Positions 5,778-60,964 of a stretch of DNA of 64,000 bases are shown piece after piece. The notes under the pieces are model-generated. The model ran no database searches. It saw only the letters and a program-made list of their open reading frames with translations, and was not told where the DNA came from. Source of the stretch: an uncultured Spirochaetota bacterium (lineage in GTDB: Bacteria > Spirochaetota > Brevinematia > Brevinematales > JAOACQ01); the NCBI GenBank assembly GCA_963835575.1, contig CAWIGG010000004.1, forward strand, positions 512,001-576,000, in the 5' to 3' direction. A program made the translations under genes and the position numbers. How positions within the stretch are numbered: the first letter of the stretch is position 1; every line of letters starts with the position of its first letter.

Positions 5778-5823
5778 ATCCGCGATAATTCGCCCAATCC
5801 GCGTCATCCGCGTGCAGAATTGG
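5778..5823. repeat. AATCCG-unit boundary repeat, right-end orientation
   Basis: ATCCGCGATAATTCGCCCAATCCGCGTCATCCGCGTGCAGAATTGG resembles 49928-49972 and 41026-41064. Confidence 0.7.
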
Positions 5824-5930
5824 ATCAGTATAATAAGGCTGCAATAATTTGTTTTTATAATCGTTCTTTTAAGGAATTGAATGAAAAATATTAATCTGTG
5901 TAATCTGTGGTTAATCCCTGGTCTTTGCGC

Positions 5931-26358: not shown

Positions 26359-26407
26359 CCTCGCCATTTTGTCAGGCCGCACTGGAGTGGCAAACAAAAT
26401 GGCGAGG
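26359..26407. repeat. Long stem-loop, loop shared with 52149-52221
   Basis: CCTCGCCATTTTGT-N21-ACAAAATGGCGAGG, perfect 14-bp stem. Confidence 0.7.
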
Positions 26408-26474
26408 GGCTATTAAAAAGCTATTAGCATAAGAATTGTTCAATTGAGGAACAATTATTTTGGAGGGCAGGCAT

Positions 26475-29842: not shown

Positions 29843-30183
29843 CATGTTTTTTTTAGGAACGGCAGGAATTTGACATCCTGAGCCACGATCTGCACTGAGC
29901 TCCGGTTTTTGCCTTCCTCAGTTTTCCAGCGGGATTGTCTGAGCTTGCCGGAAACAATAATTTTCCTTCCTTTTTTCAGGTAAGTGGAACAGATTTCCGC
30001 CAGCTTGCCCCAGGCGCTGATGTCAAAATAGCTGACATCTTCGGCTTTTTCACCATTTTTGTAGGTGATGTTTGTGTTAGCCACACTGAACTTTGTGTAA
30101 GCCAATCCGTCCGAAGTGTACTTCAGCTCCGGGTCTTTGACCACTCCGCCTTCTACCACAATCACGTTTACTCCAGCTTGCAT
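29842..30183 (-). CDS. ssb: Single-stranded DNA-binding protein (short form)
   Basis: KDPELKYT, FSVA, AWGKLAE, YLKKGRKIIVSGKL. Confidence 0.9.
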   Translation of the reverse strand: MQAGVNVIVVEGGVVKDPELKYTSDGLAYTKFSVANTNITYKNGEKAEDVSYFDISAWGKLAEICSTYLKKGRKIIVSGKLRQSRWKTEEGKNRSSVQIVAQDVKFLPFLKKT

Positions 30184-35207: not shown

Positions 35208-35720
35208 ATGGTGGAAATTATTTATTTGTTTGTCGCGCTTATTGTGGTTATTATTGTCGCGCTGCTTTTAATCCTTTTCATTACCGCGGTTATCAATACG
35301 CTGCTGATTAAGGAAAAGGGAATACTTGAAAAAAATAATGTAGCTGTGGCTGTTCTTACGGCTTCCATTATCATCTCAACAGCGATGCTTTGCTCCGATT
35401 CTCTGGCGACGGCCCTTTCTTCCATAAAGAACGCCATCATAGGCCATATGGGAAGCGCTTATATTATAAAAGCAAGCGTTATCGGCCTTATACTGCTTGT
35501 ATTGGCTGTTATATTTGCGCTGGTCATCGCGTTTTTATCGGTTAAGCTTTATGATTTTATGACCCCGAATACTGATGAAATGGATGAAATCGTAAAGAAG
35601 AGCAATGTGTCCTTCGGCATTTTGATGGGCACTATTGTCATAGCGTTAACTATTTTTATCCGGAGCCCGTTTACGGACCTGCTCCTGAGGATCGCCAGGC
35701 CGTTATTTGAGGGGAAATGA
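35208..35720 (+). CDS. Membrane protein (DUF350-like)
   Basis: Duplicated NVAVAV / DEIVKKSNVSFGI pattern; GAGGAGG RBS. Confidence 0.65.
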   Translation: MVEIIYLFVALIVVIIVALLLILFITAVINTLLIKEKGILEKNNVAVAVLTASIIISTAMLCSDSLATALSSIKNAIIGHMGSAYIIKASVIGLILLVLAVIFALVIAFLSVKLYDFMTPNTDEMDEIVKKSNVSFGILMGTIVIALTIFIRSPFTDLLLRIARPLFEGK

Positions 35721-35776
35721 CACGGTCGTATTTAAATAAGACTTATTCAGGCTTTGGAAAGAATAAGGAGTCTGTT

Positions 35777-36433
35777 ATGAATAATATAATTAGAACAATA
35801 ATTTTTGCCGGGTTTATAATGCTTTGCGGCTTGATTTACGGCGCTCATAATGAAAACACTCAGGATTTCAGCGCAGTCGGCCCGGAAGGCATTCCCATGC
35901 TGATGGAGTTCGCGAAATACACCGATCCGAAAGATATTGACGCCCGGACAAAGGCGATAGCCAGGCTGGGTGAATTGAAGGCCGAAAAAGCCGTGCCGGT
36001 TATCATAGAAGCCCTTGGCGCCGGCCGTGAAACAATGGTTGAAGTCAAGGACCCTTTCTGGAGGGTGAGAATGAACGCCGCGACAGCCCTGGGTGATATC
36101 GGCACGGATGACGCGGTCATTCCTTTGAAGGACGCAGCCAGGCTTGACCGGAACGCGGTTGTTCAGCGCGCCGCCATACAGAGCCTCGGCAGGATGGGCG
36201 AAAAAGCGCGGACAAAGCTTGTTCTTGAGAATCTTTTTAAACTGCTGGAGCAGACCCAGGACAGCAGTCTGGCGAATGACATATGCTGGGCCCTGGGGAA
36301 AATCGGGGATAAAAAGGCTATGCCCTACCTCATGAAAGTGGACCAGCGGGAATATCTGCAGGTGGTCAAGCAGACGGCAAAAACCGCGATATCTGAATTG
36401 AAGTGGGACAAGGAGTCGGCGATTCCGGATTAA
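35777..36433 (+). CDS. Exported HEAT-repeat protein
   Basis: RTKAIARLGEL, WRVRMNAATALGDIG, VQRAAIQSLG. Confidence 0.85.
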   Translation: MNNIIRTIIFAGFIMLCGLIYGAHNENTQDFSAVGPEGIPMLMEFAKYTDPKDIDARTKAIARLGELKAEKAVPVIIEALGAGRETMVEVKDPFWRVRMNAATALGDIGTDDAVIPLKDAARLDRNAVVQRAAIQSLGRMGEKARTKLVLENLFKLLEQTQDSSLANDICWALGKIGDKKAMPYLMKVDQREYLQVVKQTAKTAISELKWDKESAIPD

Positions 36434-36439
36434 GCCCTT

Positions 36440-36545
36440 TATAATAAGATTCCTTTTTATAGCATCCGATTATCCACGCGGATTGACGCGGATTAAGCGG
36501 ATTTTCGCAGATTTATTTGTAATAGATCAAATAAATTGCTTTAAA
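36440..36545. repeat. Left boundary repeat L1
   Basis: 36440-36504 is the inverted complement of 41026-41090 (52/65 ungapped). Confidence 0.8.
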
Positions 36546-36607
36546 TCAACCGATAATAAATTTGGCATTTAATTAACTGCATGCTATATTACTTATAAGG
36601 ATAATAT

Positions 36608-37165
36608 ATGATACCTTATCAAAAAGAAAAAATTGACAATGCCATCTGTTATTTTGCTAAAGAGTATAAAACAAAAGCAAGAAGATATCTGCCGCAAACC
36701 ATGCTTTATAAATTGCTTGCTTTTCTTGATATGGAAAGTGTTAAGGAAATAGGAATGCCGGTGCTTGGTCTTGATTATCTTGCGATGGAACGAGGTCCTG
36801 TACCTCCTGAAATTTACAATAAAAAACAGGAAACCGCTCTATATAAATTTGTGCCTGTTGGAGACAAAAAGTACGATGTTATCTGCAAAGGCAAACCGAA
36901 TCTGGATTATTTCTCCGATTATGAATTAGAAAAGATGGAAAGATTGATATTCATTCATGCTAATGCGGCAGTTAATACAAAACTTACAAGCCAGGCCAGT
37001 CATGATGAATTACCGGCATGGAAAAAAGCTTATAAGAAAAAACCTGATAGTAAAATTGATTTTGAAGATATGTTTGAAGAGAATCTCAAAGATAAAAGTC
37101 CGGAAAAACTATCGGCCGCAGAAGAACATTTTTTAATTCAAAAAGCAATCCTTGGACATAGGTAA
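36608..37165 (+). CDS. Panacea (DUF4065/SocA-like) antitoxin
   Basis: LYKLLAFLD, YLAMERGPVP, SHDELPAWK. Confidence 0.82.
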   Translation: MIPYQKEKIDNAICYFAKEYKTKARRYLPQTMLYKLLAFLDMESVKEIGMPVLGLDYLAMERGPVPPEIYNKKQETALYKFVPVGDKKYDVICKGKPNLDYFSDYELEKMERLIFIHANAAVNTKLTSQASHDELPAWKKAYKKKPDSKIDFEDMFEENLKDKSPEKLSAAEEHFLIQKAILGHR

Positions 37166-37606
37166 ATGCAGGCGGGAACTGTCTTAAAATGGATAGATTT
37201 TCCCGAACCAATAGATGGGGAAATAAAACCAAGATGGTTTGTTTGTCTGGGAAGATCCTCAAGTTTATTCCCACCAGTATGTTATTATATTTGTACTACC
37301 ACAACTCAGATTTATCATTATGAATCGGGCGGGGATAGAGCACATCATCAGAATATCAGATTTAGAAAAAATGAATTCGAATTTGAGGATGATTGTGTTC
37401 TTGATCTGGAAAGTTATTACTATAAATCTGAAGAGTCGATAAAATTGAATGAAAATAATATACAGATTAAAGGGCTTCTTGAAAGGCAAATAATGATTCA
37501 AATTTATAATAAGATACTTAAATCAAAATGTTATTCAAAGATAATCAAGCAGGATATTCATTTCTCTTTTAATGAAGCTGGAATTACCGGCTTAAAAACC
37601 CCGTAA
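37166..37606 (+). CDS. Putative toxin, possibly PemK/MazF-like
   Basis: Abuts the Panacea stop (TAA-ATG); GTVLKWIDF...KPRWFVCL...ICTTT. Confidence 0.5.
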   Translation: MQAGTVLKWIDFPEPIDGEIKPRWFVCLGRSSSLFPPVCYYICTTTTQIYHYESGGDRAHHQNIRFRKNEFEFEDDCVLDLESYYYKSEESIKLNENNIQIKGLLERQIMIQIYNKILKSKCYSKIIKQDIHFSFNEAGITGLKTP

Positions 37607-37704
37607 ACATCTTATTTATTTTACCTTTATTGCGATTTTCCCGCCTATTAAATATAATTTCTTATCGATAAATAGGGGAATTGTATAAGTAAGCGATATA
37701 AAAA

Positions 37705-40700
37705 ATGTTGAAAGAATACGTTAAGAATCTATTTAAAACTTTTTCCCATGGCGACGCCAGAGAAGAAAGCTATTACGAGCACCTTGCCGGTCTATTGAGG
37801 ATTATCTCGGAAGAAAAGAAAATTAAAAATATAGATGTGACAATTTTGCCGAAAAAAACCGAAGCGGGAAATCCGGATTTCCGTGTTTGGGATGGAAAGA
37901 CCCGCATTACCGGTTATATCGAAGCCAAAGACCCTTCAAAAACAGACCTTGATTCAATTGAGGATTCGGAACAGTTGAAACGCTACCGAAATACATTTCC
38001 AAATGTCATTCTGACCAATTTTTTTGAATTCCGACTGTATCGGGATGGAATATTGATTGACAGTATAAATATTGCCAGACATAAAATCCCGTTTGAACTT
38101 GGCACGGCGCCTCCCGTTGAAAAGGAAGACAAATTCATCGAACTTCTGGATAAATTTTTCTCCTATTCAATTCCCAATGTCAGCAGCGCGAAATCACTGG
38201 CGGAGGAACTGGCGAAAAGGACAAGATTCCTCCGCGATGAGGTGATCGCGGTCGAACTGGAAGAAGAAGCGAAGAATGGGAAAAAGAACATATTCGGGTT
38301 TTATGAGGCATTTAAAAAATACCTGATCGGCGACAGCCTTACCATTCTGCAGTTCGCAGACCTGTATGCCCAGACGATCACATACGGCCTCTTCGCGGCG
38401 CGCACAAGGGCGGACGGCAGTTTCAACCGCGAACTCGCCTATAAATACATTCCGAAAACAATCGGCATATTAAAGGATATATTCAAATTTATATCGCTGG
38501 AAGAACCGCCGAAACCATTAGAGATCATCGTGGACGATATAGCTGAAATTCTTAATGTCACAGATGTCAAAAAGATTCTGCGGGATTATTACCGGGAAGG
38601 TAAAGGCGGCGACCCGGTGGTACATTTTTACGAGACCTTTCTTGCCGATTATGACCCGGCCATGCGCGAAAAACGGGGCGTTTATTATACGCCGGAACCG
38701 GTCGTTAAATACATAGTGCGTTCAGTCCATCAGATATTAAAGACGGAATTCGGCCTTAATGATGGATTGGCAAGCAGGGAAGTAACACTTCTTGATCCCG
38801 CGGCGGGGACTCTGACATTTCCCGCGGAAGCCCTAAAATGCGCGGTGGATGAATACGTTTCAAAATACGGGGCCGGTGGAAAAACAAACCTGATTAGAAA
38901 TCAAATACTTCCAAATTATTACGCCTTCGAGCTGATGATGGCCCCCTATGCCATCGGCCACCTGAAGATAAGCTTTCTGCTTGAGGAACTGGGTTACAGC
39001 CTCGGCGACGAGGAGCGGTTTAACCTGTACCTGACCAATACGCTTGAGACAAAAGAACTGGACGCGGCGAACCTGCCGGGATTGAGTTCTTTAAGCGAGG
39101 AAAGCCATCTGGCGGGGAAGATTAAAAAGGAACAGCCGATTTTAGTCATTATGGGAAACCCGCCTTACAGCGGAATATCGTCGAACATAAACGAATGGAC
39201 AGAAAAGCTTTTGAAGACGAATTTAGACGGCGCGCAAAGCTATTACGAAGTCGACGGGAAACCGCTCGGTGAGAAAAAAGTATGGCTTCAGGATGATTAC
39301 GTCAAATTCCTGCGCTTCGCGCAGTGGAAAATCCAGAAGGCCGGTTTCGGCATCGCCGGTATGATCACCAACCATAGCTATCTGGACAACCCCACGTTCC
39401 GGGGAATGCGCCAGAGCCTGATGAAAACCTTTAACGAAATTTATATTATTGACCTGCACGGCAACAGCCTGAAAAAAGAGGCATGTCCAGACGGCTCAAA
39501 AGACGAGAATGTGTTCGATATTAAGCAGGGCGTGGCCATAGCCCTCTTTGTGAAACAGAAAGATAAGAAAGGGTGCAAAGTATTTCATCTTGATCAATAC
39601 GGCTTGCGGGAAGAAAAATACAGCTGGCTGGAAAATACGGGGTTCAAACGTGGAAGCTATAAAGAAATTAAACCCGAATCACCATGGTATTTCTTTGTGC
39701 CCCGCGATACGGAAAAGATAGCCAATTTCCTTAAATGGGAAAAAATAAATGATATTTTTCCCGTAAATGTTACCGGTATAGTGACAGCAAGGGATAGTTT
39801 TGTAATTGATTTTGAAAAATATTCATTACAAAATAAAATAATGCAATTTAAAAACAAATCAATTTCAGATGATGAGATTAGGGAAGCATTTAAACTGAAA
39901 GATACACGTGGCTGGAAACTATCAAAAGCAAGAAAAGAGCTTTTCACTGATATAAAATGGGATAAGTATTTTCAAAAAATATTATATCGTCCCTTTGATA
40001 TTAGAGACATTTATTATACCCCAAATATGGTTGATTGGGGCCGCCCTGAATTCATGCGCCACATGCTTAAGGAAAATGTTGGTTTAATTATTCCTCGTCA
40101 ATTCAAAGAAGAACCTGGAGCTTTTATTACTGAACATATTATTGGGCATAAAACGGTTAGCGCTTATGATATCAATTATATATTTCCACTATATTTATAT
40201 AAAAAGGATGATTCTGATAACGGTTCCGAACAGGAGCTTACTTTTGACCAATCGGAAGAATACGACAGTCTGAACCGCAAGCCGAATATTTCAAACGGAA
40301 TTTACCGGAAGCTTGAAACGATTTATAAAACAAAACTTACGCCCGAAGATATCCTTTATTATATTTACGGGATATTTTACAGCAACACTTACCGGGAAAA
40401 GTATGCCGAGTTTCTCCGTATAGATTTCCCGCGGGTACCGTTCACGTCCGATTATAAGCTTTTTAAACAAATGTTTGGGTATGGACAAAGTCTTGCTGAA
40501 CTGCATCTTTTGAAAAGCAATATGCTGGATAACCCCGTCTCAAAATATCAGGGCACAGACGGCAGCGACAGAATTGAAAAAATCGCTTACGATGAAAAGA
40601 CGCGGCGGGTTTATATCAATCAGGATAAATATTTTGACGATATTTCACCGGAATTATGGAATTACCAAATCGGCGGCTATCAGGTGCTGGAGAAGTATTT

Positions 40701-40839
40701 AAAGGACCGAAAAGGCCGGATGATGAACAACCCGCGGTATTACTGCCTGATTGTATCAGCGATAAGTAAAACGATTGAAATACAGAAAAAGATTGACGGG
40801 ATTTATAACAGAGTGGAAGAGAAGTTGATAGAATTTTGA
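37705..40839 (+). CDS. Single-chain restriction-modification enzyme (PD-(D/E)xK + N6-adenine MTase + type ISP-like specificity domain)
   Basis: GNPDF...YIEAK, GVYYTP, LDPAAGT, GNPPY, YRPFD, DFPRVP, YQIGGYQVLEKYLKDRK; no helicase motifs seen. Confidence 0.85.
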   Translation: MLKEYVKNLFKTFSHGDAREESYYEHLAGLLRIISEEKKIKNIDVTILPKKTEAGNPDFRVWDGKTRITGYIEAKDPSKTDLDSIEDSEQLKRYRNTFPNVILTNFFEFRLYRDGILIDSINIARHKIPFELGTAPPVEKEDKFIELLDKFFSYSIPNVSSAKSLAEELAKRTRFLRDEVIAVELEEEAKNGKKNIFGFYEAFKKYLIGDSLTILQFADLYAQTITYGLFAARTRADGSFNRELAYKYIPKTIGILKDIFKFISLEEPPKPLEIIVDDIAEILNVTDVKKILRDYYREGKGGDPVVHFYETFLADYDPAMREKRGVYYTPEPVVKYIVRSVHQILKTEFGLNDGLASREVTLLDPAAGTLTFPAEALKCAVDEYVSKYGAGGKTNLIRNQILPNYYAFELMMAPYAIGHLKISFLLEELGYSLGDEERFNLYLTNTLETKELDAANLPGLSSLSEESHLAGKIKKEQPILVIMGNPPYSGISSNINEWTEKLLKTNLDGAQSYYEVDGKPLGEKKVWLQDDYVKFLRFAQWKIQKAGFGIAGMITNHSYLDNPTFRGMRQSLMKTFNEIYIIDLHGNSLKKEACPDGSKDENVFDIKQGVAIALFVKQKDKKGCKVFHLDQYGLREEKYSWLENTGFKRGSYKEIKPESPWYFFVPRDTEKIANFLKWEKINDIFPVNVTGIVTARDSFVIDFEKYSLQNKIMQFKNKSISDDEIREAFKLKDTRGWKLSKARKELFTDIKWDKYFQKILYRPFDIRDIYYTPNMVDWGRPEFMRHMLKENVGLIIPRQFKEEPGAFITEHIIGHKTVSAYDINYIFPLYLYKKDDSDNGSEQELTFDQSEEYDSLNRKPNISNGIYRKLETIYKTKLTPEDILYYIYGIFYSNTYREKYAEFLRIDFPRVPFTSDYKLFKQMFGYGQSLAELHLLKSNMLDNPVSKYQGTDGSDRIEKIAYDEKTRRVYINQDKYFDDISPELWNYQIGGYQVLEKYLKDRKGRMMNNPRYYCLIVSAISKTIEIQKKIDGIYNRVEEKLIEF

Positions 40840-40841
40840 AC

Positions 40842-40898
40842 AATCCTGAAAATCCTCTTAAATCCTGTCAATCCTGCTCAATTGGGTTCTACTAAACC
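40842..40898. repeat. Variant right boundary repeat directly after the R-M gene
   Basis: Four AATCCT units followed by AATTGGGTT, as in 49928-49974. Confidence 0.7.
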
Positions 40899-41025
40899 GG
40901 TTCAATTATATTATCCGATATTCTTTATAAAAATCTTCTGTCTACCGGGTCCCTCGGAATCCTGCTCCTATAAGTCAAACACCGAGTAAATTAAAAAGGC
41001 AGCTTTGAGAAAAACTAAATCCTAT

Positions 41026-41090
41026 AAATCCGCTCAATCCGTGAAAAGCCGCGTGAAAAATCGGATATTATAAACAGGAATACTAATATA
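41026..41090. repeat. Right boundary repeat R1
   Basis: Inverted partner of 36440-36504. Confidence 0.8.
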
Positions 41091-41215
41091 CAATACTTTA
41101 ATATGATAATTAAGCATAATTGAACATCAATTCCTCCCACCTTTTTTAATACCGCGCTTGAATTTTATTTTAAGGTATTATATACTTCTATTCAATAGTA
41201 ATAGGTGGAATAAAT

Positions 41216-41572
41216 ATGGCTAAAGAACTCATAAAAATTCTAAAGGCCCTGGCGGACGAGAACAGGATACGGATTTTATGCCTGCTCAATCAAAAAGACT
41301 TATGTGTCTGTGAGATTGAAGAAGTATTAAAAATGAACCAGTCGAATGTATCGAGGCATCTCATTAAATTGAAGGAAGCCGATCTGATCGTTTCGGAAAA
41401 ACAGGCGCAATTTGTCTTTCATAGCTTGAATGATGAAATGATGAGCAGATATCCTTTCCTGAAACAGCTCTTATCGCAGGCTACTGAACTTGATAAATTC
41501 AAAAAGGATATCGAAGTTCTTAAGACCATGATTAAAGAAAATAAACTGACCTGCAGGACCTCGAGTACTTGA
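41216..41572 (+). CDS. arsR: ArsR/SmtB repressor
   Basis: KALADENRIRI, DLCVCEI, NVSRHL. Confidence 0.9.
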   Translation: MAKELIKILKALADENRIRILCLLNQKDLCVCEIEEVLKMNQSNVSRHLIKLKEADLIVSEKQAQFVFHSLNDEMMSRYPFLKQLLSQATELDKFKKDIEVLKTMIKENKLTCRTSST

Positions 41573-41617
41573 CAAAACTATTTTTTTTAAATAATATATG
41601 AGTATATTTGAATATAT
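41569..41617 (+). promoter_or_regulatory. Sigma70-type promoter with probable ArsR box upstream of acr3
   Basis: TTGACA-N17-TAATAT overlapping ATATATGAGTATATTTGAATATAT. Confidence 0.55.
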
Positions 41618-41649
41618 GTATTAGAGAATATGTTGCCGGGAGGATACCT

Positions 41650-42708
41650 ATGATTGATGCCGCTCAGAAAAAATTGAGTTTTGTTGATAAGTTCCTGACC
41701 TTATGGATATTTACCGCGATGGCCACCGGTGTCGCATTAGGTTATTTTTACCCGCCTTTTACGGCTTGGATCAGTAAATTTCAGGCTGGTACGACATCAA
41801 TTCCAATTGCCATAGGCTTGATACTGATGATGTACCCGCCGCTCGCGAAGGTAAAATATGAGGAAATGGGAACAACATTCAAAAACAAAAAACTGCTTTT
41901 TTTATCGCTCTTTCAAAACTGGCTGATCGGCCCTATGGTTATGTTTTTACTGGCAGTTCTTTTTTTGAGGGACAATCCCGGCTATATGATCGGAGTTATC
42001 CTGGTCGGCCTCGCGCGCTGTATCGCTATGGTCATCGTATGGAACGACCTTGCTAAGGGCGACAGGGAGCTGGGAGTGGGTATTGTCGCTTTTAACGCCG
42101 TGTTCCAGGTTTTATTTTACGCATTTTATATTTATTTGTTCATTACGGTTTTTCTGAACGCACTGGGCATTATAAAGGGACTGAATATCAATATCTCCAT
42201 TCTGGAATCTGCAAAAACCGTCATGATTTATCTGGGAATACCGTTCTTCGCAGGGCTGATTACACGATTCATATTGTTGAAAACAAAAGGCAAAGAATGG
42301 TTTGAAAGGGTGTTCTCCCCTTTTATCAGTCCCATTACTTTGATAGCATTGTTATTCACAATCATCATAATGTTTTCGCTGAAAGGGAAATTTATTGTTC
42401 AGGCCCCGTTCGATGTTGTTAGAGTAGCTATACCTTATATTATCTACTTTTTCGCCATGTGGTTCATTACTTTTTTTGCCGCGAAAAAAATGGGCGCGAA
42501 TTACGAACAGAGTGTTGCGGTGTCTTTTTCGGCAGCGTCCAATGATTTTGAGCTGGCGATTGCGGTGGCCATATCAATTTTTGGTATTGACTCGAATCAG
42601 GCTTTCGCAGCAGTGATCGGGCCGCTGATCGAGGTGCCGGTTATGATCATACTGGTTAATATAGCGTCAAGATTAAAGAAAAAATTCATTGCAAGAGGTA
42701 ATTTATGA
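41650..42708 (+). CDS. acr3: ACR3 arsenite efflux transporter
   Basis: [47 protein letters not shown]. Confidence 0.95.
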
Positions 42709-42944
42709 AAGTTCAGATTTTAGGTTCGGGATGTCCTAACTGCAAGCGGCTGGAAGCGAACGCGAAGGAAGCGGTTCAGGCTTCCGGCATCCAGGCTGAT
42801 ATAGAGAAAGTAACGGATATTGCAAAAATCATGGAATTCGGCGTAATGATGACCCCCGCGCTTGCCGTTAATGGTGTCGTTAAAAGCGCCGGCAGGGTTC
42901 TCAATAAAGACCAGATAATTCAGATTTTAAAGGGAGGAAAATAA
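42705..42944 (+). CDS. Small thioredoxin-like redox protein
   Basis: [16 protein letters not shown]. Confidence 0.88.
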
Positions 42945-42945
42945 A

Positions 42946-43311
42946 ATGGCTGAATGCTGCAGCTGCGGAAGCGGCGGGATCAAACTGATATACGCATGTT
43001 CCGGCGCCGCCAACACGGGATATTTAGCGGACGCAGCCGCGAGAAAGCTGATGAAAGACAACGCCGGTAAAATGACATGCCTTGCAGCGATGGGAGCGGA
43101 ACTTTCCGGGTTTATAGAATCCGCTAAATGCGCTGAAAAGAATATTGTTATTGACGGATGTCCGGTTTCCTGCGGGAAAAAGATATTTGAAAAGCTGGGT
43201 TTGCCATTTGAGCATTTTATCACGACTGATTTCGGGGTGGAGAAAGGGAAGACGGAAATTACCGCTGAAGTTATAGACAGAGTTGCAATGAGCGTGGCTG
43301 AGAGGTTATAG
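42946..43311 (+). CDS. DGC-domain putative zinc-binding protein
   Basis: YACSGAANTG, IDGCPVSC. Confidence 0.85.
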   Translation: MAECCSCGSGGIKLIYACSGAANTGYLADAAARKLMKDNAGKMTCLAAMGAELSGFIESAKCAEKNIVIDGCPVSCGKKIFEKLGLPFEHFITTDFGVEKGKTEITAEVIDRVAMSVAERL

Positions 43312-43313
43312 GC

Positions 43314-44264
43314 ATGTGGAAAACTTTTGTCGACTGGCTGGTATATAAAATAATCGGACTTTCGCCGGAATCGCATATAGGGGCCGCGCTGAATTTCTTC
43401 GTTTACGACACGGTCAAGATTTTCTTTCTGCTTGCGGTCATTATTTTCGCGATAGCCATTATCAGAAGTTTTTTCCCGCCGGAAAAGACAAAGCAGATAC
43501 TGGAGAAAGTTCCGGAGTTCGTCGGGAATATTCTGGCATCCCTGCTCGGTATAGTGACACCTTTCTGTTCGTGTTCGGCAGTCCCGCTTTTCATCGGTTT
43601 CATCGAAGCGGGAATTCCTTTAGGGGTAACATTTTCTTTTCTGGTTTCTTCACCGATGGTCAATGAAGTCGCGCTGATTATGCTCTGGGGAATGTTTGGT
43701 TGGAAGGTGGCTGTTATTTATATTGCCAGTGGCATTGTGATCGCTATTCTCAGCGGGTTAGCCATCGGCAGAATGAAACTGGAAAAGCAGGTGCAGGATT
43801 ATGTTTATAAAATCAAATCCGGGAATGCGGAAATTGAAAAACAGACCTGGAAAGACCGGTTCCTTTATGCGCGCGATTATGTCGGCGAAATCATCGGCAA
43901 AGTCTGGCCTTATGTCCTTGTTGGCATAGCAATCGGCGGGTTTATGCACGGGTACGCTCCGGCTGATTTCCTGTCGAAAGTTGCCGGTCCCGGCAACTGG
44001 TTTGCCGTCCCGATAGCGGTCTTGATCGGCGTTCCGCTCTATTCCAACGCGGCGGGGGTCATCCCGATCGTGAAAGTTCTCATGGACAAAGGGATGGCAA
44101 TAGGGACGGCATTGGCCTTTATGATGGCTGTCACGGCCCTGTCGCTGCCGGAAGCAGTTATTCTCAAGAAGGTCCTTAAAACAAAACTGCTGGTTATCTA
44201 TTTCAGCGTTGTGGCTGCAGGAATAATGCTGACAGGGTATTTGTTTAACTGGATTTTAAAATAA
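43314..44264 (+). CDS. ArsP/DUF318-family permease
   Basis: TPFCSCSAVP, GVPLYSN, LSLPE. Confidence 0.88.
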   Translation: MWKTFVDWLVYKIIGLSPESHIGAALNFFVYDTVKIFFLLAVIIFAIAIIRSFFPPEKTKQILEKVPEFVGNILASLLGIVTPFCSCSAVPLFIGFIEAGIPLGVTFSFLVSSPMVNEVALIMLWGMFGWKVAVIYIASGIVIAILSGLAIGRMKLEKQVQDYVYKIKSGNAEIEKQTWKDRFLYARDYVGEIIGKVWPYVLVGIAIGGFMHGYAPADFLSKVAGPGNWFAVPIAVLIGVPLYSNAAGVIPIVKVLMDKGMAIGTALAFMMAVTALSLPEAVILKKVLKTKLLVIYFSVVAAGIMLTGYLFNWILK

Positions 44265-44276
44265 ATCGGGAGGATT

Positions 44277-44669
44277 TTGACAGTGACAAAAAAAGTATTT
44301 ATTTTTATTATGTTTACACTCATTCTGTTTTCAGCCTGCGCAAAAAAAAGCAAAGAATCCGTAGCGGCTGCACCGGATACCGCCGGATACAAGGTCACTT
44401 TTATTGAGCTTGGTTCCGTTAACTGTGTTCCCTGCAAAATGATGCAGCCGGTTATGGCGGAAATCGAAAAAGAATACGCCGGAAGGGTCAAAGTGGTGTT
44501 TTACGATGTATGGACTCAGGAAGGCCGGCCCTATGGCCAAAATTACAGGATCAGGGTTATTCCGACGCAGGTATTTTTAGAAAAAGATGGGAAAGAGTTT
44601 TTCCGGCATGAGGGTTATTTCCCGAAAGAAGATCTGGTCAAGGTATTGGAATCGCAGGGTGTTAAATAA
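44277..44669 (+). CDS. Exported thioredoxin (probable lipoprotein)
   Basis: FSAC lipobox-like, CVPC, IPTQVF. Confidence 0.82.
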   Translation: MTVTKKVFIFIMFTLILFSACAKKSKESVAAAPDTAGYKVTFIELGSVNCVPCKMMQPVMAEIEKEYAGRVKVVFYDVWTQEGRPYGQNYRIRVIPTQVFLEKDGKEFFRHEGYFPKEDLVKVLESQGVK

Positions 44670-45379
44670 TGGACTTTTTGATCCATCTTTTTGACTTTTT
44701 CACTAAAATGTTCCAGTCCAATCCCTGGACTGCTGTTTTAGCGGCTTTCGGCTGGGGAATACTCAGTATTGTTCTAAGCCCGTGCCATCTTTCCAGCATT
44801 CCGCTCGCGATTGGTTATATAAATGGGAAAGGCAAATTGAAAACTTCGAGGGCTTTCTTTCTGTCTTTGATGTTTTCCCTTGGCATTTTGATAACAATTT
44901 CGTTTATCGGGTTGATAACAGGTTTGGCAGGCCGGATGCTGGGCGATATTGGAAAAGCCGGGACAATTATTGTCGCTGTTGTTTTTGTGCTGGTGGGCAT
45001 CTGGTTGATGGATTTTATACCTATTCCGCTATTACAATCAATAAACCCCAATATGAGAGGAAAAGGCGGTATAGGTGCGTTTGTTTTAGGACTTTTGTTC
45101 GGGCTGGCACTCGGCCCATGTTCTTTCGGGTTTATGATGCCGCTGCTCCTGGTTGTATTTCAGACTGCTCAAAGTAATATTGCTTATTCAATTATTTTAC
45201 TTTCCTCATTCGCGCTGGGTCATATCGGAATGATCGTTTTAGCGGGGACTTTTGTCAATTGGGTGCAGAATTACCTGAACTGGACCGAAAAATCGAAAGG
45301 CGTTATGATTTTCCGCAGAATTTGCGGAGGATTGGTTATATTGACCGGAATTTATTTGATAATTGGGCAATTCAGATAA
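44669..45379 (+). CDS. CcdA/DsbD-beta family protein
   Basis: SIVLSPC, GLALGPC, multiple TM helices. Confidence 0.85.
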   Translation: MDFLIHLFDFFTKMFQSNPWTAVLAAFGWGILSIVLSPCHLSSIPLAIGYINGKGKLKTSRAFFLSLMFSLGILITISFIGLITGLAGRMLGDIGKAGTIIVAVVFVLVGIWLMDFIPIPLLQSINPNMRGKGGIGAFVLGLLFGLALGPCSFGFMMPLLLVVFQTAQSNIAYSIILLSSFALGHIGMIVLAGTFVNWVQNYLNWTEKSKGVMIFRRICGGLVILTGIYLIIGQFR

Positions 45380-45442
45380 ACATGATAAAAAATTAACATC
45401 AAATTAACAAAAATTGGTTATTATATTATGTGAGGTTATCTT

Positions 45443-45877
45443 ATGGAAAAAATAAAAGTATTGTTTGTCTGTGTTCACAATTCCGCCCGGAGCCAGATTG
45501 CCGAAGTTTTTTTAAACCTCTTGGGTGGGGAGCGTTTTATTGCCGAAAGTGCCGGGCTGGAACCGGGTGTGCTCAATCCAAATGTTGTTGAGGTCATGAA
45601 GGAAACCGGCATAGACATTTCCGGTAATAAAACGAAAAGCGTTTTTGGTTTCTTTAAACAGGGGAAGATTTACAATTATGTCATTACCGTCTGCAACGCC
45701 TCGGCCGGGGAAAGGTGCCCGGTTTTCCCCGGAAGAGTAACCCGCCTTCACTGGGAATTTGACGATCCCGCCGGTTTTCAAGGAACGCATGAGGAAATTC
45801 TGGCAAAGACAAGGATAGTACGGGATCAAATTAAAAATAAAATTGAAGAATTTATAAATAAAGTCAAATTCCAATAG
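45443..45877 (+). CDS. arsC: Arsenate reductase (LMW-PTP fold)
   Basis: [13 protein letters not shown]...CPVFP, HWEFDDP. Confidence 0.92.
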
Positions 45878-45964
45878 ATGGAAATAATTGGAAAAGATCC
45901 AATGCTTTAAGAATACAGTTATCATATCCATTCAACGCACATCAAAAAATATTTTTTAAACTCC

Positions 45965-46027
45965 TTGACATACAGGCTTTTTGTTGTTAACATATAAACA
46001 ATAGTTTATATATATAATCGTTTATAT
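45965..46027 (+). promoter_or_regulatory. Promoter and operator of the second ArsR operon
   Basis: TTGACA-N17-TAACAT overlapping palindrome ATATAAAC-AATA-GTTTATAT (45992-46011). Confidence 0.65.
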
Positions 46028-46041
46028 AAAAGGATGTTTAT

Positions 46042-46380
46042 ATGGATGAAGCGGTAAAACTCCAGATTTATTTCCAGATCCTGGGGGATTCCAACAGGCT
46101 CAGGATCATCAAATACATAGGGGGCAGGGAATGTTCCGTTTCCGAAATAGTCGAAAACACAAAGCTTTCGCAGCCGCTTGTTTCGCACCATCTGCGAACC
46201 TTGAGAGAGAATCAGGTACTTGAAACAAAAAGAAAAGGCGCTTTTGTGTATTACAAATTGAAAGATGAAAGGCTTCTGAGCGCTCTTGGAATATTCCTCG
46301 AAATAGTCAACTCCCTGAATGAGGAGAAAATGGCTTCGCCGATGTTCTCCATTCCGGGATGGTGGAATATGTGTAAATAA
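46042..46380 (+). CDS. ArsR/SmtB repressor
   Basis: LGDSNRLRI, SQPLVSHHL. Confidence 0.88.
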   Translation: MDEAVKLQIYFQILGDSNRLRIIKYIGGRECSVSEIVENTKLSQPLVSHHLRTLRENQVLETKRKGAFVYYKLKDERLLSALGIFLEIVNSLNEEKMASPMFSIPGWWNMCK

Positions 46381-46438
46381 GCTCTAAATGGCGGATTCGA
46401 GAAATCCAATCAAATATAAAAAGTCAGGAGGGCACTTT

Positions 46439-46948
46439 ATGGGTATTAAAGAAAAGATGATGGAAGGCATGATGGGCAAGATGTCGGCGGAGGAAAAAAA
46501 GGAAATGATGGATAAGATGATGGACAGCTTCTTTTCCGGCATGACCGCCGAAGAAAAGCAGAACATGATGAAGGATATGATGCCGAAGATGATGGGTTCG
46601 ATGATGGGCGGCGGCTCATCTATGGGCGATATGATGAGTACTATGATGGGAGAAGGCGGTGGGCCCATGGATATGTGCAAAAGTATGATGTCTTCAATTT
46701 CTAAAAGCTCGGATATGGCCAGTTTTGCCTTGCCGGAAGTCAGGGACCTTTTTGAGGAATGGATGATCCAGATCGAGGAGGAAATTATGAACCTGATGGC
46801 CGGGAAAAAGGAAATAACGCCTGAAGAAATCGCCAAGGAACTAAAAATTTCGAAAAAGAGCGCCATCTATTTCGCCTCGCGGCTGGCACAGAACGGCAAG
46901 ATTTCCCTGAAGATAAATAAAGAGGATGAACATGGTAATGAAAAATAA
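46439..46948 (+). CDS. Methionine-rich protein with C-terminal winged-helix-like region
   Basis: 28 Met in the first 84 residues; ITPEEIAKELKIS; GGAGG RBS. Confidence 0.7.
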   Translation: MGIKEKMMEGMMGKMSAEEKKEMMDKMMDSFFSGMTAEEKQNMMKDMMPKMMGSMMGGGSSMGDMMSTMMGEGGGPMDMCKSMMSSISKSSDMASFALPEVRDLFEEWMIQIEEEIMNLMAGKKEITPEEIAKELKISKKSAIYFASRLAQNGKISLKINKEDEHGNEK

Positions 46949-47729
46949 TATGCAGGAAAATAAAGCTTGTAATGGAAAAGAGTGCGATATTCTTGAATTT
47001 ATGGCGAAAGATGTGGGTATGACAGTGCTTCACCCTGGCGGGTTCAAGGCGACCGACAGGCTGATGAATTGGTGCGGGATCAATACGGACGCTCATGTAC
47101 TGGACATTGCTTGCGGAAAGGGGAGCGGTGCAGTTTATATTTCAAAAAAATCCGGCTGCCGGGTGACCGGTATTGACCTGGATCATGGTTTACTGGAAGA
47201 AGCGAAGAAGCAGATAAAAAAAGGAGAGGCGGGAAGTCGGCTTTCTTTTTATCTGGAAAATGCTGAGAATTTATCTTTCAAGGACAATACTTTTGATGTG
47301 ACGATTTTTCAGGCTGCCCTTGTTTTGATCGGAGATGTACAAAAAGCAATAAAAGAAGCGGTAAGGGTTACAAAGAGAGGCGGGAAAATCGGCCTCCTGG
47401 AATTGACTTGGCTTAAAAAACCGGCCGGGGAAGTTCTTGAATCGGCTGTAAAAGATATCTGCGCGGCCTGCATGACTCGGGCTCTTCCTCCGGAAGGCTG
47501 GATAAAGCTCCTGGAGAATAACGGCCTGGCTTTGAAGCATACTCAAAGTTTTAATATGGAATTCAAGAATATGATGGGGGACGAAGGCCCACTTAATATG
47601 GTTAAAATCATGAAAAACATACTTTTCAATTCTTCAGTCAGAAAGAGGGTCTTGAAAATTAATAAATTTTTCGAAAAATACAATTCCTACCTGGGTTATG
47701 GCATTTATGTCGCTGAAAAAATAGGATAA
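46926..47729 (+). CDS. Class I SAM-dependent methyltransferase (exact start uncertain)
   Basis: LHPGGFKAT, VLDIACGKG, RVTKRGG. Confidence 0.85.
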   Translation: MNMVMKNNMQENKACNGKECDILEFMAKDVGMTVLHPGGFKATDRLMNWCGINTDAHVLDIACGKGSGAVYISKKSGCRVTGIDLDHGLLEEAKKQIKKGEAGSRLSFYLENAENLSFKDNTFDVTIFQAALVLIGDVQKAIKEAVRVTKRGGKIGLLELTWLKKPAGEVLESAVKDICAACMTRALPPEGWIKLLENNGLALKHTQSFNMEFKNMMGDEGPLNMVKIMKNILFNSSVRKRVLKINKFFEKYNSYLGYGIYVAEKIG

Positions 47730-47772
47730 ATGAAATATTTCTCAAAAATAAAATCATTTTAAGGAGTTCATC

Positions 47773-47997
47773 ATGTGCGGATACGGTTTCGGACTGTTTA
47801 ATCCTTTCGGATGGGGCCTTTGCGGCATCTTTTTCTTTCTTTTTATGGCGGTTGTCATTTATTCCTTGATAAGGAATGCCGGCGGTCATTCCTGGAGAAT
47901 GCCGGGTTATGATACACCCCTGAATATTCTCAAGAAGCGTTATGCCAGGGGTGAGATCAGCAGGGAAGAGTTTGAAAAAATAAAAAAGGATATCTAA
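47773..47997 (+). CDS. SHOCT-domain small membrane protein
   Basis: ILKKRYARGEISREEF. Confidence 0.85.
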   Translation: MCGYGFGLFNPFGWGLCGIFFFLFMAVVIYSLIRNAGGHSWRMPGYDTPLNILKKRYARGEISREEFEKIKKDI

Positions 47998-48047
47998 TTT
48001 TAGGAAAGCATGAATCAATTAATTGCTAAAAAAGCTATTATATCAAC

Positions 48048-48126
48048 CCCAATTCAACACGGATTAGCACGGATGAAACAGATTTATGCGGATTTAGTCG
48101 TAATAGAAAATGAGATAAATTGCTTT
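48048..48126. repeat. Left boundary repeat L2
   Basis: 48048-48092 is the inverted complement of 49928-49972 (34/45); inner GTAATAGA...ATAAATTGCTTT shared with L1. Confidence 0.78.
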
Positions 48127-48197
48127 TTATCGATTAAATAGTTGTAAATATATATAATTGTTTTAAAATAATATAATTAAATTAGTGGAAATATATT

Positions 48198-49370
48198 ATG
48201 CAGAGTCTTAATGTTTCAGTTAATCCAATAATATTAAAATGGGCTCGTGAAAGATTGGGGCTTTCTATTGACAGTGTTGCTAAATTTTTGAAAAAAGATC
48301 CATCAATTATTATTCAATGGGAAAATGGTGAGAGTAAACCTACCTATGTTCAACTTGAAAAACTATCTTATCAATTATATAAAAGGCCATTAGCGGTGTT
48401 TTTTTTCCCAACCCCGCCTGATGAGCCAGAAATTACTAAATCTTTTAGAACTTTACCTGACATTGAAATTCAAAATTTTATTCCAGACACATATCTGGCA
48501 TTAAGGCAAGCACAATCAATGCAATTGGCTTTAAAGGAATTGAGTAATGATATTAATAAATCGGAAAAAAAGATTTTCTCTGATATAATTGTAGAAAATT
48601 TAGAAGATGTTATTTCTATCTGCTCTGAGATTAGAAGCTATCTTAATATTTCTATTGAAGAACAAATAAAGTGGATGAATGTAGACACAGCTTTAAAAAA
48701 TTGGAGAAAATTACTTGAGGATTCCGGGATTTATATTTTTAAGCGTTCATTTAAACAAAAAGAAATTTCCGGATTTTGCTTAATTGATATAGAATTTCCA
48801 ATTATATATTTAAATAATAGCACATCACAAAACCGACAGATATTTACAATATTTCATGAATTAGCCCATATTTTATTAAAAGTAAATGGAATGACAAAAG
48901 CCGATGATTCATATATTAATATTTTGGCAGGTATGAATAGAAATATTGAATATTTCTGTAATCAATTTGCCGGAGAATTATTAGTACCGTCGCAACATTT
49001 TAACTTAAATATAAAACAATTTCATGAGTTCAATGATGCTGCAATATATAAATTGGCAGACATATATAAGGTTAGTCGTGAGGTTATACTAAGGAAATTA
49101 ATAGATCGTAAATTAGTTGATGGTAGTATTTATGAATCAAAAGCAAATATTTGGGCAAAAGAATTTGAAAATAATCGCAAAGGGAAAAAGGGTGGGGATT
49201 ATTATTCAACACAGATTACTTATCTTGGTGATAAATTTCTAAAACTGGTTTTCAGCAAATATTATGAGGGGAGCTTCTCTATCGATCAAGTGGCTGATTA
49301 TTGCAATTTAAAAGTTAATAATATTGATAATTTAGAACATTATTTCATGAATAAGATGGCCAATATATGA
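48198..49370 (+). CDS. XRE HTH + ImmA/IrrE zinc metallopeptidase
   Basis: LKWARERLGLS...WENGESKPT, FTIFHELAH, CNQFAGELLVP. Confidence 0.9.
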   Translation: MQSLNVSVNPIILKWARERLGLSIDSVAKFLKKDPSIIIQWENGESKPTYVQLEKLSYQLYKRPLAVFFFPTPPDEPEITKSFRTLPDIEIQNFIPDTYLALRQAQSMQLALKELSNDINKSEKKIFSDIIVENLEDVISICSEIRSYLNISIEEQIKWMNVDTALKNWRKLLEDSGIYIFKRSFKQKEISGFCLIDIEFPIIYLNNSTSQNRQIFTIFHELAHILLKVNGMTKADDSYINILAGMNRNIEYFCNQFAGELLVPSQHFNLNIKQFHEFNDAAIYKLADIYKVSREVILRKLIDRKLVDGSIYESKANIWAKEFENNRKGKKGGDYYSTQITYLGDKFLKLVFSKYYEGSFSIDQVADYCNLKVNNIDNLEHYFMNKMANI

Positions 49371-49837
49371 TTTATATTTTTGATACCGGAGCTTTTATTG
49401 TAATAAGTCACTATTTTCCAGAAAGATTCCCTTCATTCTGGACAAAATTGAATGATTATGTGGAAAAAGGTTCTATTATATCAGTAAGGGAAGTATATAA
49501 TGAATTAAGCAACCATGGGAACAAACCTTTTTTGAAGAATTGGCTTGATAAGAATAAAGATATTTTCAGGATGCCTTCCGAAGATGAAATTAACTTTTTA
49601 AGCGAAATATTTCAAATCAATCATTTTCGTCAATTGATTGGGCAGGAACAGATTTTAAAAGGTAAACCAGTTGCTGATCCTTTTGTTATAGCTTCCGCAA
49701 GGATTAATAAAGGGTGTGTAGTTACTGAAGAAAGCTTTAAGATTAATGCTGCTAAAATACCTAATGTGTGCCAACATTTTTCGATTGATTGCACAAATAT
49801 TGAAGCATTTATGGAACGTGAAAAGTGGACATTTTAA
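49367..49837 (+). CDS. DUF4411 PIN-like protein
   Basis: YIFDT, FPSFW, ADPFVIA, VVTEE, KIPNVC; ATGA overlap with the upstream gene. Confidence 0.85.
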   Translation: MIYIFDTGAFIVISHYFPERFPSFWTKLNDYVEKGSIISVREVYNELSNHGNKPFLKNWLDKNKDIFRMPSEDEINFLSEIFQINHFRQLIGQEQILKGKPVADPFVIASARINKGCVVTEESFKINAAKIPNVCQHFSIDCTNIEAFMEREKWTF

Positions 49838-49927
49838 TTTAAATAATAATTTTATAGGTGATAAATGGGAAATAATATAGATGAATTAAAACAGGAAAGA
49901 AAGTCTATTATTTAATTAAATTAATTT

Positions 49928-49980
49928 TCCGTGAAAATCCGTTCAATCCGCAAAAATCCGCGTTGAATTGGGTTATATAA
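49928..49980. repeat. Right boundary repeat R2
   Basis: TCCGTGAAAATCCGTTCAATCCGCAAAAATCCGCGTTGAATTGGG. Confidence 0.78.
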
Positions 49981-50116
49981 ACCAAGCTTAATAAAACGAA
50001 CAAAGGATTTTAATCCAATTTATTTTGTGTTACAGGTGTAGCCTGCCACCCTTTTCCATCCGTGTTCTTCTGTGTAATTCTGTGGCTCACCCATTTCTTC
50101 CCGCCTTCCTGTTGGT

Positions 50117-51316
50117 CTAATCCCCGATCTCACTCACCTTCACATCAGGAACGGGAAATTTCTCCATAATCATCTTCTGCGCCGTATAAACGCTTTTGCC
50201 GGATTCGAATTTATACCCCAGTTCTTTTAAAGCCAGTTCCATGGCCTGAAGCTCCACAATTATGTCCGATTTATCCACATAGCCCAGGTGGCCGAGGCGG
50301 AAAACCTTGCCCTTGACAGGGCCCTGTCCTCCGGCGATCGTTACGCCGTATTTATCCCGCATCAGGCCCGGTATTTTGCTTCCGTCAATGCCCGCGGGGG
50401 CCTTTACAGCGGTGAGAGTATCGGAAGGCCTGACATGCGGTATATCGGCAAGAATGGAAAGCCCGATCGACTGAACGGCCTTACGGAAAGTTTCAGCGAC
50501 CATCGCATGCCTTTTTATTATATTCTCAAGCCCTTCCTCCCGCATCATCTTTAAGGCATGATTGAGGCCGGTGAAGAGCGTGATGGCAGGGGTCCAGGCC
50601 GTTGTGTTCTTTTCCTGGCTTTTCTTTTCCTTCGCGAGATCAAAATAAAACTTCGGAAGGTCCGATCTTTTCATTAATTTTTCCGCTTTATCCGAGTAAG
50701 CGATAAACGACAGACCCGGAGGTATCATAAAGGATTTCTGCGAACCGGCTATGGCGGCATCGACGCCCCACTCGTCCATTTTGAATTCCATCGCCCCGAT
50801 GGCGGTAATCCCGTCGACAATGAGGATGGTGTCTGTTTTTTTAACAATGGAAGCGATATTTTTAATATCAAAAGCGACCCCGGTTGAAGTCTCGCTGTAT
50901 TCGGTATAAACCGCTTTTATATCCGGATTTTCCCTGAGGGCTTTTTCGACCCCATCCGCTTTTATATCTTTGCCGTATTCAGCCGTCAATTCAATCATTT
51001 CGGCGCCATATGTCCGGCCGATCTCTGCGAACCTCTCGCCGAATTTCCCGGCGGAAAGAACCAGCGCTTTATCGCCTTTTGAGAGAAAATTGGTAACAGA
51101 AGCTTCCATGGCCCCTGTTCCTGATGAAGTCAGTGTCAGAACGGGGTTTTTTGTCTGGAAAACATACTTGAGCAGCTCGCCGTTCTCCCTGACAATGTTT
51201 GAAAACTGAGGCGTCCTGTGGTGAATGAGCGGTTTTGACATTTCCGAAAGGATCTCCGCGGGTACGGCTGTCGGCCCGGGAGAGCACACAAATTTTTTAA
51301 TCAATGTCAGCTCCAA
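50117..51316 (-). CDS. Class V aminotransferase (alanine/serine-glyoxylate family)
   Basis: PGPT, HHRT, SETSTG, GSQKSFMIPPG, FRLGHLG. Confidence 0.9.
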   Translation of the reverse strand: MELTLIKKFVCSPGPTAVPAEILSEMSKPLIHHRTPQFSNIVRENGELLKYVFQTKNPVLTLTSSGTGAMEASVTNFLSKGDKALVLSAGKFGERFAEIGRTYGAEMIELTAEYGKDIKADGVEKALRENPDIKAVYTEYSETSTGVAFDIKNIASIVKKTDTILIVDGITAIGAMEFKMDEWGVDAAIAGSQKSFMIPPGLSFIAYSDKAEKLMKRSDLPKFYFDLAKEKKSQEKNTTAWTPAITLFTGLNHALKMMREEGLENIIKRHAMVAETFRKAVQSIGLSILADIPHVRPSDTLTAVKAPAGIDGSKIPGLMRDKYGVTIAGGQGPVKGKVFRLGHLGYVDKSDIIVELQAMELALKELGYKFESGKSVYTAQKMIMEKFPVPDVKVSEIGD

Positions 51317-52148: not shown

Positions 52149-52221
52149 GGCATTTCCATCCCTCACCAGTTTGATTGCTCCTCAGGTGTAGCCTGACAAA
52201 CTGGTGAGGGATGGAAATGCC
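52149..52221. repeat. 25-bp perfect stem-loop
   Basis: GGCATTTCCATCCCTCACCAGTTTG-N23-CAAACTGGTGAGGGATGGAAATGCC. Confidence 0.85.
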
Positions 52222-60565: not shown

Positions 60566-60964
60566 ATTAACACTCCTTTATTTTAACCGCCAAAACACAA
60601 AGAACACAAAGAAACACCAACGGGGGTAGCCACAGAAATACAAGAGAGGTGAGGAGAAAGTTTCTTTTCAAATATAATAAACAATTAATTTAATAAAAAT
60701 TTTATAAATATTTTACACCAAACCTTTATAGATCTCTGTGGTCCTTGGTGGTTAATTATATATTACTATTAATATCAATCATCGAAACCATGATAATGAA
60801 GAACCATTAATTAACCAGACACCCAATGAATCCTCCTTTCCATGGTCTTAAGTTTCATTCAGTGGTTAACCTCCGTACACCCTTCCCGCCTTGTTAATTT
60901 TACCGCATTCGCGCTAATTCGCGTGTATTCGCGGAATACCCGGTGTATAGAAATTCGGTTTTCT

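Follow-up and report, generated by a model that had tools for sequence, protein, structure and literature searches.

Oriented arrays of short tandem words mark gene-gain junctions in a Spirochaetota genome and may derive from the ends of nuclease cassettes

A 64,000-nt stretch of the genome of an uncultured Spirochaetota bacterium (contig CAWIGG010000004.1, positions 512,001 to 576,000; hereafter the window, with positions counted from its first nucleotide) contains two groups of defence-like genes, each enclosed by an inverted pair of intergenic repeats, here called arms. These arms were analysed in the genome under study (G000) and in a set of compared genomes and loci, which are given G- and L-numbers respectively. 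They are, with good confidence, lineage-specific, oriented and nested insertions at gene-gain boundaries, for which empty and swapped states exist and in which the repeated word is paired with a specific clade of a small gene family. The wider reading preferred here is that the arms are derived ends of nuclease cassettes that mark slots for gene capture and exchange. As a whole mechanism, of which we infer both the enzyme and the mode of action, this reading is given a probability of about one in two.

The first pair of ends (36440–36504 and 41026–41090) and the second (48048–48092 and 49928–49972) are inverted matches over 52/65 and 34/45 positions respectively, exactly as given in a preliminary description of the window, and they rank first and third by length among its 712 inverted pairs. 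Read towards the cargo, each end consists of a head (ATCCGATT or ACCCCAATT) followed by three to four degenerate ACGGAT words with a 9–10-nt period. The inner segment said to be common to both left ends is real and occurs in G000 only at these two places (36519–36542 and 48100–48126, both on the + strand); the two copies are mutual best matches among 116 tails, with a score that was reached in 2 of 2000 shuffles. As also described, no recombinase lies inside either cassette. No direct target duplication was found at the four boundary choices tried, although the nesting of arms obscures where the outer boundaries really lie. The cargo of the first cassette is a Panacea/SocA antitoxin (PF13274), a 146-aa partner and a Type ISP/IIG restriction-modification (R-M) enzyme, and that of the second is an HTH_3-Peptidase_M78 protein (XRE-M78) and a DUF4411 protein. 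The GC content is 0.34 in the toxin-antitoxin (TA) pair, 0.42 in the R-M gene and 0.30 in the second cassette, with 0.46–0.47 in the outer flanks.

The four window ends are 4 of 116 copies detected in G000 with an iterated profile (E ≤ 0.01; 0 in a reversed-genome control), and a covariance model without base pairs found 117. Arms are built of a CCGATT or CCCAATT head and three to four tandem ACGGAT words. All 116 are intergenic according to gene calls from a home-made caller, and no bias towards a replication strand was evident. Consecutive arms lie within 5 kb of each other in 36 cases, against 13.2 expected and a maximum of 26 in 2000 draws, and closely spaced neighbours face inward 19 times versus 3 times outward. 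Within 10 kb there are 23 inward pairs, of which 8 are empty (22–317 bp) and 15 bear genes. Insertion sequence (IS) transposases, multicopy elsewhere, occur in 5 of the 15 cargo-bearing pairs and are read as secondary. An IS110 copy ends at the same word-array point just outside two arms (L079 and L141; G000:C5:349373 and C6:242521), which suggests IS targeting of word arrays.

The arms are strongly polarized. The inner gene has a GC content below 0.33 at 38 of the 116 arms and the outer gene at only 3, against a background of 9.4% of all genes. Spacers at host/low-GC boundaries hold arms in 32 of 193 cases, and these arms point to the low-GC gene in 31 instances versus 1. Similarly, where an array of another word lies just outside an arm, it runs in the same direction 28 times and in the opposite direction once. 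Intergenic word arrays of all kinds number 416 in G000, as against 0–3 in shuffles. A sister family of headed CAGGAT arms has 33 copies in G000 (for example C4:380339/385202) and also bounds lineage-specific inserts. A repeat of about 210 bp, resembling a miniature inverted-repeat transposable element (MITE), is present at G000:C2:997648-997859 and at more than 25 other places with 86–99% identity.

Comparison with the congener G004 covered 1.2 Mb (about a third of G004), 675 orthologues and 463 junctions adjacent in G004. Arms are present in 14 of 79 G000 junctions with extra genes versus 3 of 372 without them, or 3 of 91 when only gaps of at least 150 bp are counted among the latter. The arms thus mark junctions of gene gain, in keeping with the preliminary description. 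When an arm has a conserved gene within 200 bp, it is directed into the insert 18 times versus 2; together with the 31 versus 1 at low-GC genes, this is far from the random orientation that would have spoken against cassettes. Covariance-model arms are absent from all four congeners (149 candidates scored in each), number 3–7 in three members of the family and 10–40 in four genomes of the related genus g9, and phylum-wide 8 of 150 genomes match the arm model. The exact headed-arm pattern gave 0 matches in the genome-contig collection, and a related pattern gave 0 in viral contigs.

Empty and swapped states were both found at orthologous junctions. The polA and dprA genes are 16–28 bp apart in all four congeners; in G000, an arm, a 225-aa open reading frame (ORF) and a second arm lie between them, with both arms at most 8 bp from the host genes and only the cargo between. 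A second clean empty site is the junction of purE and a GDP-mannose dehydratase gene, which are adjacent in G003. Swapped cargo, also proposed earlier, was seen in genus g9, where each of four genomes has a different AT-rich cargo at the orthologous carB|CBM48 junction. The cargo is accompanied by headed ACGGAT arms in G025 and by CACAGAG-type arms in G019; G015 has a single headed arm, and in G022 there are CACGAAT/CACGGAG-type arrays to one side. At a second g9 junction, that of an aldehyde dehydrogenase gene, the alternatives are a 189-aa ORF, two different ORFs and an Mrr nuclease. The polarity in g9 is 12 versus 3 of 34 loci, these loci having been chosen by arm score.

The suggestion that the repeats may supply a promoter holds for some arms. 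Three of the carB|CBM48 ORFs (121, 162 and 320 aa) lie behind a near-identical promoter and ribosome-binding site (RBS) module of about 75 nt and diverge at the start codon; no blastp match below E 0.5 was found among them, and they may be remotely homologous. In addition, a seven-member arm subfamily in G000 has a TTGACA promoter in its inner tail. A separate motif search for this subfamily gave no matches, and the subfamily rests on other analysis. A fifth arm in the window (5771–5849, - strand) belongs to this subfamily, with a TTGACA-17-nt promoter in the tail.

The repeats were taken to be of a kind associated with GxxExxY (PF13366) genes, and this was then put to the test. The function of PF13366 is given as 'Unknown' (PMC3424549). 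The nine PF13366 genes of G000 are bordered by inward-facing arrays of other words, for the most part at both ends. Eighty GxxExxY loci were fetched, and 54 of the 75 with usable flanks had significant inverted flanks. The arm profile is present on both flanks, facing inward, at 23 of 77 usable loci of clade B, a set whose seed was a gene adjoining an ACGGAT doublet, versus 0 of 74 in clade A, the first set. Likewise, CGGAT is the dominant flank word at 76 of 80 loci in clade B versus 0 of 80 in clade A. The tree of the family was a quick one, with 64 rows from a 35% subsample plus eight genes from G000. In G068, two arm pairs enclose 5' or 3' remnants of an ACGGAT-clade gene (50–54 bits), and arm pairs can therefore arise by internal deletion. 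The inner arm tails of G000 were also considered as 3' remnants of GxxExxY genes and rejected as such (0 of 116).

The predicted model of GxxExxY has a restriction-endonuclease-like fold (pLDDT 95), with a best Z of 8.8 to BpuSI (rmsd 2.6 over 94 residues), and residues D67, E77 and K79 are invariant. No sequence relatives were found in the PDB at E < 0.39. GxxExxY is a candidate PD-(D/E)XK nuclease for the arms; a shared fold shows no function. The search for a co-occurring nuclease proposed in the preliminary description revealed a pairing of clade and word, whereas the enzyme is a candidate only and does not track the arms among relatives.

The view that such cassettes stock defence genes was borne out in part. 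Defence or TA genes make up 18 of 105 distinct inner genes versus 3 of 110 outer genes (p = 3.7e-4), by a hand classification of Pfam and PADLOC hits that omits five further possible inner genes and in which one long gene was scanned in part. The inner set includes R-M types IIG and III, GmrSD, Cas3, Cas8b, SEFIR, Fic and RhuM as well as PIN, HicA, a HigB-like protein, an OLD-like ATPase and DUF2971. The enrichment is not specific to defence, and 87 of the 105 inner genes are not clearly of this kind. Many cargos are ORFans, the majority of 30 proteins examined having no NCBIfam match, and, IS copies and a few pairs aside, the cargos have no protein family in common. At L069 (G000:C4:909955-913257), an arm and a HigB/HigA-like pair stand between two RlmL-like genes, an arrangement that may be an arm-bounded duplication.

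According to the preferred reading, the arms would descend from the ends of GxxExxY (PF13366, PD-(D/E)XK fold) nuclease cassettes and would have grown in number within this lineage. A small nuclease specific to the word, active in trans or at an earlier time, would bind the tandem words and cut on their inner side, and the break would be repaired by recombination with other arm-bearing DNA, either incoming or chromosomal. Such repair may insert or replace the DNA that arms enclose, in some cases downstream of a promoter-RBS module linked to an arm. Defence and TA genes would be enriched because single-gene, stand-alone cargo persists in the slots, and the two window cassettes would be two filled slots.

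Several observations weigh against this reading, and many of them concern the enzyme. G000 (assembly 94% complete) has no ACGGAT-clade GxxExxY gene; its closest GxxExxY gene is 55% identical and has another word, the nearest one lies 4.9 kb from any arm, and none of the 116 arms contains a GxxExxY remnant. Searches for PF13366 were negative in G008 (99% complete, seven arms), G010 (95%) and G025 (73%), while G002 has five PF13366 genes and no arms. Among ACGGAT-word loci across phyla, the gene lies within 2 kb in 2 of 57, and many of these loci are empty doublets. Other observations concern the arms and their cargo. Of 1016 host-host spacers, 39 also hold arms, and the two members of a pair resemble each other no more than random copies do (mean rank 0.50, 23 pairs). 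At one swapped junction the cargo has only degenerate arms in G019 and only one arm in G015, most arm cargo is not defence, and none of 30 homologues of the window cargo elsewhere (11 XRE-M78, 18 Panacea and one DUF4411) carries arms. The window's own outer junctions yielded no empty site: at the HEAT-arsR and SHOCT-aminotransferase junctions, singled out earlier for comparison, synteny is broken in G001–G004. Finally, head-to-head doublets account for 7 cases among 42 arms in g9, one of them a bare insertion and two bracketing ileS-lspA. Because doublets occur bare or around these genes, inward pairs can arise without cargo capture, and an inward pair alone is not proof of a cassette. Doublets at six g9 loci (L327, L334, L336, L338, L339 and L384) show a short palindrome joint around a variable 10–11-nt AT-rich spacer. 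The earlier claim of mobile cassettes therefore stands in so far as gene-gain junctions are marked and cargo is swapped. Movement of arm, cargo and arm as one unit is unsupported, in view of the unlikeness of paired arms, the armless cargo homologues and the enclosure of ileS-lspA in one relative.

Many of these points would be expected if the arms were selfish inserts, similar to MITEs or to doublets of repetitive extragenic palindromes (REPINs), in permissive spacers, with foreign genes gathering at the same hotspots and the orientation resulting from targeting or selection. The lack of likeness within pairs, the empty state of 8 of 23 inward pairs, the head-to-head doublets, the housekeeping genes between arms and the 0 of 30 cargo homologues with arms all favour this explanation, as do a 182-bp empty arm unit present in a second copy at 95.6% identity and the 416 intergenic arrays of many words, often empty doublets in conserved junctions. 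Such inserts are at odds with the polarity of 31:1 towards the foreign gene and 18:2 into inserts, with the position of the polA|dprA arms directly at the host genes with cargo alone between, and with the four cargos at one junction, each with inward arms, where unrelated ORFs have one promoter module. Selfish insertion is considered unlikely.

The same g9 junction bears on a further alternative, ordinary homologous recombination via the conserved flanking genes, to which arms and promoter modules would add only homology and expression, no dedicated enzyme being at work now. In its favour, cargo and arm word differ among the four g9 congeners between flanking genes that are conserved, arms occur where the candidate enzyme is lacking, G000 has a dprA homologue, and a mechanism of this type is documented for Neisseria in the portion of the source consulted (PMC1797815). 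The first entry of cargo into arm-bounded slots, the clade-specific pairing of word and enzyme and the strict polarity at many independent sites are left unexplained. Exchange driven by the flanks alone is considered quite unlikely. A site-specific recombinase acting at the head, for which two heads over a 10–11-nt spacer would form the core site with accessory words, and circles would enter pseudo-sites in the manner of pdif or lambda att, is improbable: among 38 heads taken from relatives, 14 have an inverted GG(G/A)T at 10–11 nt on the outer side, head-to-head palindromes occur and G000 has 23 tyrosine recombinase hits, but the spacers at the two cassette ends are not direct repeats and vary in length, the arms are unlike the likely dif of G000 (best 18/28, median 15, 116 arms), no recombinase gene adjoins an arm, and the occurrence of the lone integrase, seen next to an empty G008 pair, does not follow that of the arms. 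The likely chromosomal dif is located at about G000:C2 1144201 on the minus strand, 5 kb from the cumulative GC skew maximum.

In the window, the host-side neighbour of left arm 1 is a HEAT-repeat gene (35717–36433, +; region GC 0.47); in G004 an unrelated host gene comes after the orthologue. Left arm 1 (36440–36523, +; profile E 5e-18) consists of a T-rich lead, a CATCCGATT head (36463) and four ACGGAT-type words towards the cargo. A sigma70-like promoter upstream of the antitoxin (36562–36590, +; 10/12 with TG) is weak evidence, as one site compares with 1.2 expected. The antitoxin (36608–37165, +) is followed by the putative toxin partner (37166–37606, +), which has no Pfam match and is PemK-like only by an atlas lead, PF02452 being present on 11% of cluster members, and by the 1044-aa R-M enzyme (37705–40839, +). 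At L437 (G009:C5:147010), a 52%-identical Panacea pair lies between direct copies of a different repeat of about 60 bp. The right end of the first cassette is layered. An inner arm with a CCCAATT head and four CAGGAT words (40840–40889, -) abuts the R-M stop codon, a stereotyped tail common to a 16-member subfamily follows (40890–41007, -), and right arm 1 (41008–41090, -) has its ATCCGATT head near 41059–41066.

A block of genes for ArsR, an SBF/Acr3-like protein, ArsP, LMWPc, a methyltransferase and a SHOCT protein (41216–47997, +) lies outside both pairs, yet within the outermost bracket formed by left arm 1 and right arm 2. Left arm 2 (48026–48103, +) has a CCCCAATT head at 48047 and precedes the gene for the XRE HTH and ImmA/IrrE M78 peptidase protein (48198–49370, +) and the DUF4411 gene (49367–49837, +). 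One search for loci related to the XRE-peptidase gave none, and in metagenomes DUF4411 was found at two loci, the true homologue being without arms. Right arm 2 (49928–49994, -; head at 49966–49973) has an outer layer in the form of a CACAGAA word array (50058–50084, -), likewise pointing inward. The host-side neighbour is a Class V aminotransferase gene (50117–51316, -), after which a different host gene comes in all four congeners. Two flanking genes were not found in congeners with the queries used. An Rfam search of positions 30000–56000 gave nothing at gathering score. Elsewhere in the window, CACAAAG and CGCGAAT word arrays face inward as a pair at 60588–60933, and two related long hairpins are present at 26359–26408 and 52149–52221, the second with perfect 25-nt arms.

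At issue is the route by which single defence and TA genes reach the junctions between core genes when no integrase or transposase is involved. The arms are a sequence mark that predicts the position of foreign genes and their side, and they link this mark to an orphan nuclease family, PF13366, with word-specific clades. This link is biochemically testable and could provide a set of natural sequence-specific nucleases. Because many of the genes inside are ORFans, the arms are also a route to mine new defence candidates. Tentatively, and against the odds, the arms could represent an undescribed dispersed gene-capture system, in which word-coded arms, each read by its own clade of tiny PD-(D/E)XK nuclease, take up and swap unrelated ORFs. 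If so, dozens of chromosomal junctions would be slots, in which swaps are sometimes precise at the start codon and behind an arm-supplied promoter, and the whole would act as a dispersed equivalent of the integron, free of any integrase, in stocking the defence arsenal. No description of this arm system was found in the literature searched, the coverage of which excluded subscription papers and supplements.

Among known systems, integron cassettes consist of single foreign ORFs, with many ORFans or defence genes among them, that are swapped behind a common promoter. The exchange of single foreign ORFs behind a common promoter is a likeness to the arms. Unlike attC sites, which are direct, the ends here are inverted pairs, and the slots are dispersed over the chromosome. 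The integron-like character proposed earlier was not upheld, as the four window ends have no GTTRRRY of the paired RYYYAAC/GTTRRRY attC core sites, form no stable hairpin and are laid out in inverted fashion. Acinetobacter dif modules (pdif) are described in the part of the source consulted, in terms that recall the cassettes here, as accessory modules without a recombinase, frequently of TA type, that lie between short sites and are mobilized in trans (PMC13141974). Unlike these, the arms do not resemble the host dif, with the low matches to the 11-6-11 candidate site given above, and the spacers of the ends are not identical.

The Neisseria minimal mobile elements consist, as here, of alternative short gene sets, including R-M genes, between conserved genes (PMC1797815). 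This arrangement is seen at the g9 carB|CBM48 and aldehyde dehydrogenase junctions and not at those of the window; unlike the elements as described in the consulted part of that source, where no bounding repeat figures, the boundaries here carry oriented arms. The NTS/SRM-Ssn GIY-YIG and Neisseria dRS3/NIME systems combine directional repeats, a single-domain nuclease and nested mosaic arrays and have been proposed to insert or exchange array-flanked genes, as is proposed here (PMC11893778, PMC1797815, in the parts consulted). The head-to-head core of the present arms, with short inverted arms around a variable spacer, is also similar in build to dRS3. The present arms differ in nuclease fold and in motif, which consists of tandem words with no obligatory hairpin, and in their empty sites, unrelated cargos at one junction and defence/TA enrichment. 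GIY-YIG gave no hit among the scanned inner and outer arm neighbours, PF01541 itself not being searched.

In REP/REPIN-RAYT systems, including REPtrons and TIRtrons, a small nuclease gene lies between inverted copies of a dispersed intergenic repeat, gene-less doublets occur and the repeat family can persist without the gene, all as here, as far as the consulted part of the source goes (PMC3733652). A dispersed family is likewise seen in G000, with its 116 intergenic copies and eight empty inward pairs. The candidate enzyme here is PD-(D/E)XK and not an HUH/Y1 transposase. The unit is an array of tandem words, most single ends of which show no folding (z of -2.6, -0.4, +0.15 and -0.8 for the window ends, and -3.6 for an empty doublet), and the arms are polarized to foreign genes and enclose kilobases of cargo. 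The two PF01797 hits in G000 have flanks with other repeats. Side findings in G000 were a Y1_Tnp domain inside a 1208-aa R-M-like frame (C5:410121-410348), a weak RAYT-like hit with its own palindromic repeats (L154, C2:500597) and a four-helix-bundle (PF05635) gene (L153, C6:2181-2498) that is preceded by a long 14-nt tandem array and followed by related units. Of the features expected of GxxExxY cassette ends, inward tandem arrays of 9–10-nt words are present, at the clade B loci and around the G068 remnants, and a gene of the same word in the same genome is not, none of the nine PF13366 genes of G000 being of the ACGGAT clade or beside an arm. Membership in the RAYT-REP, integron and pdif systems fails on the features tested. 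By analogy, the arms appear to work most like REPtron/REPIN and NTS-Ssn pairs, and in the manner of the exchange proposed for NIME.

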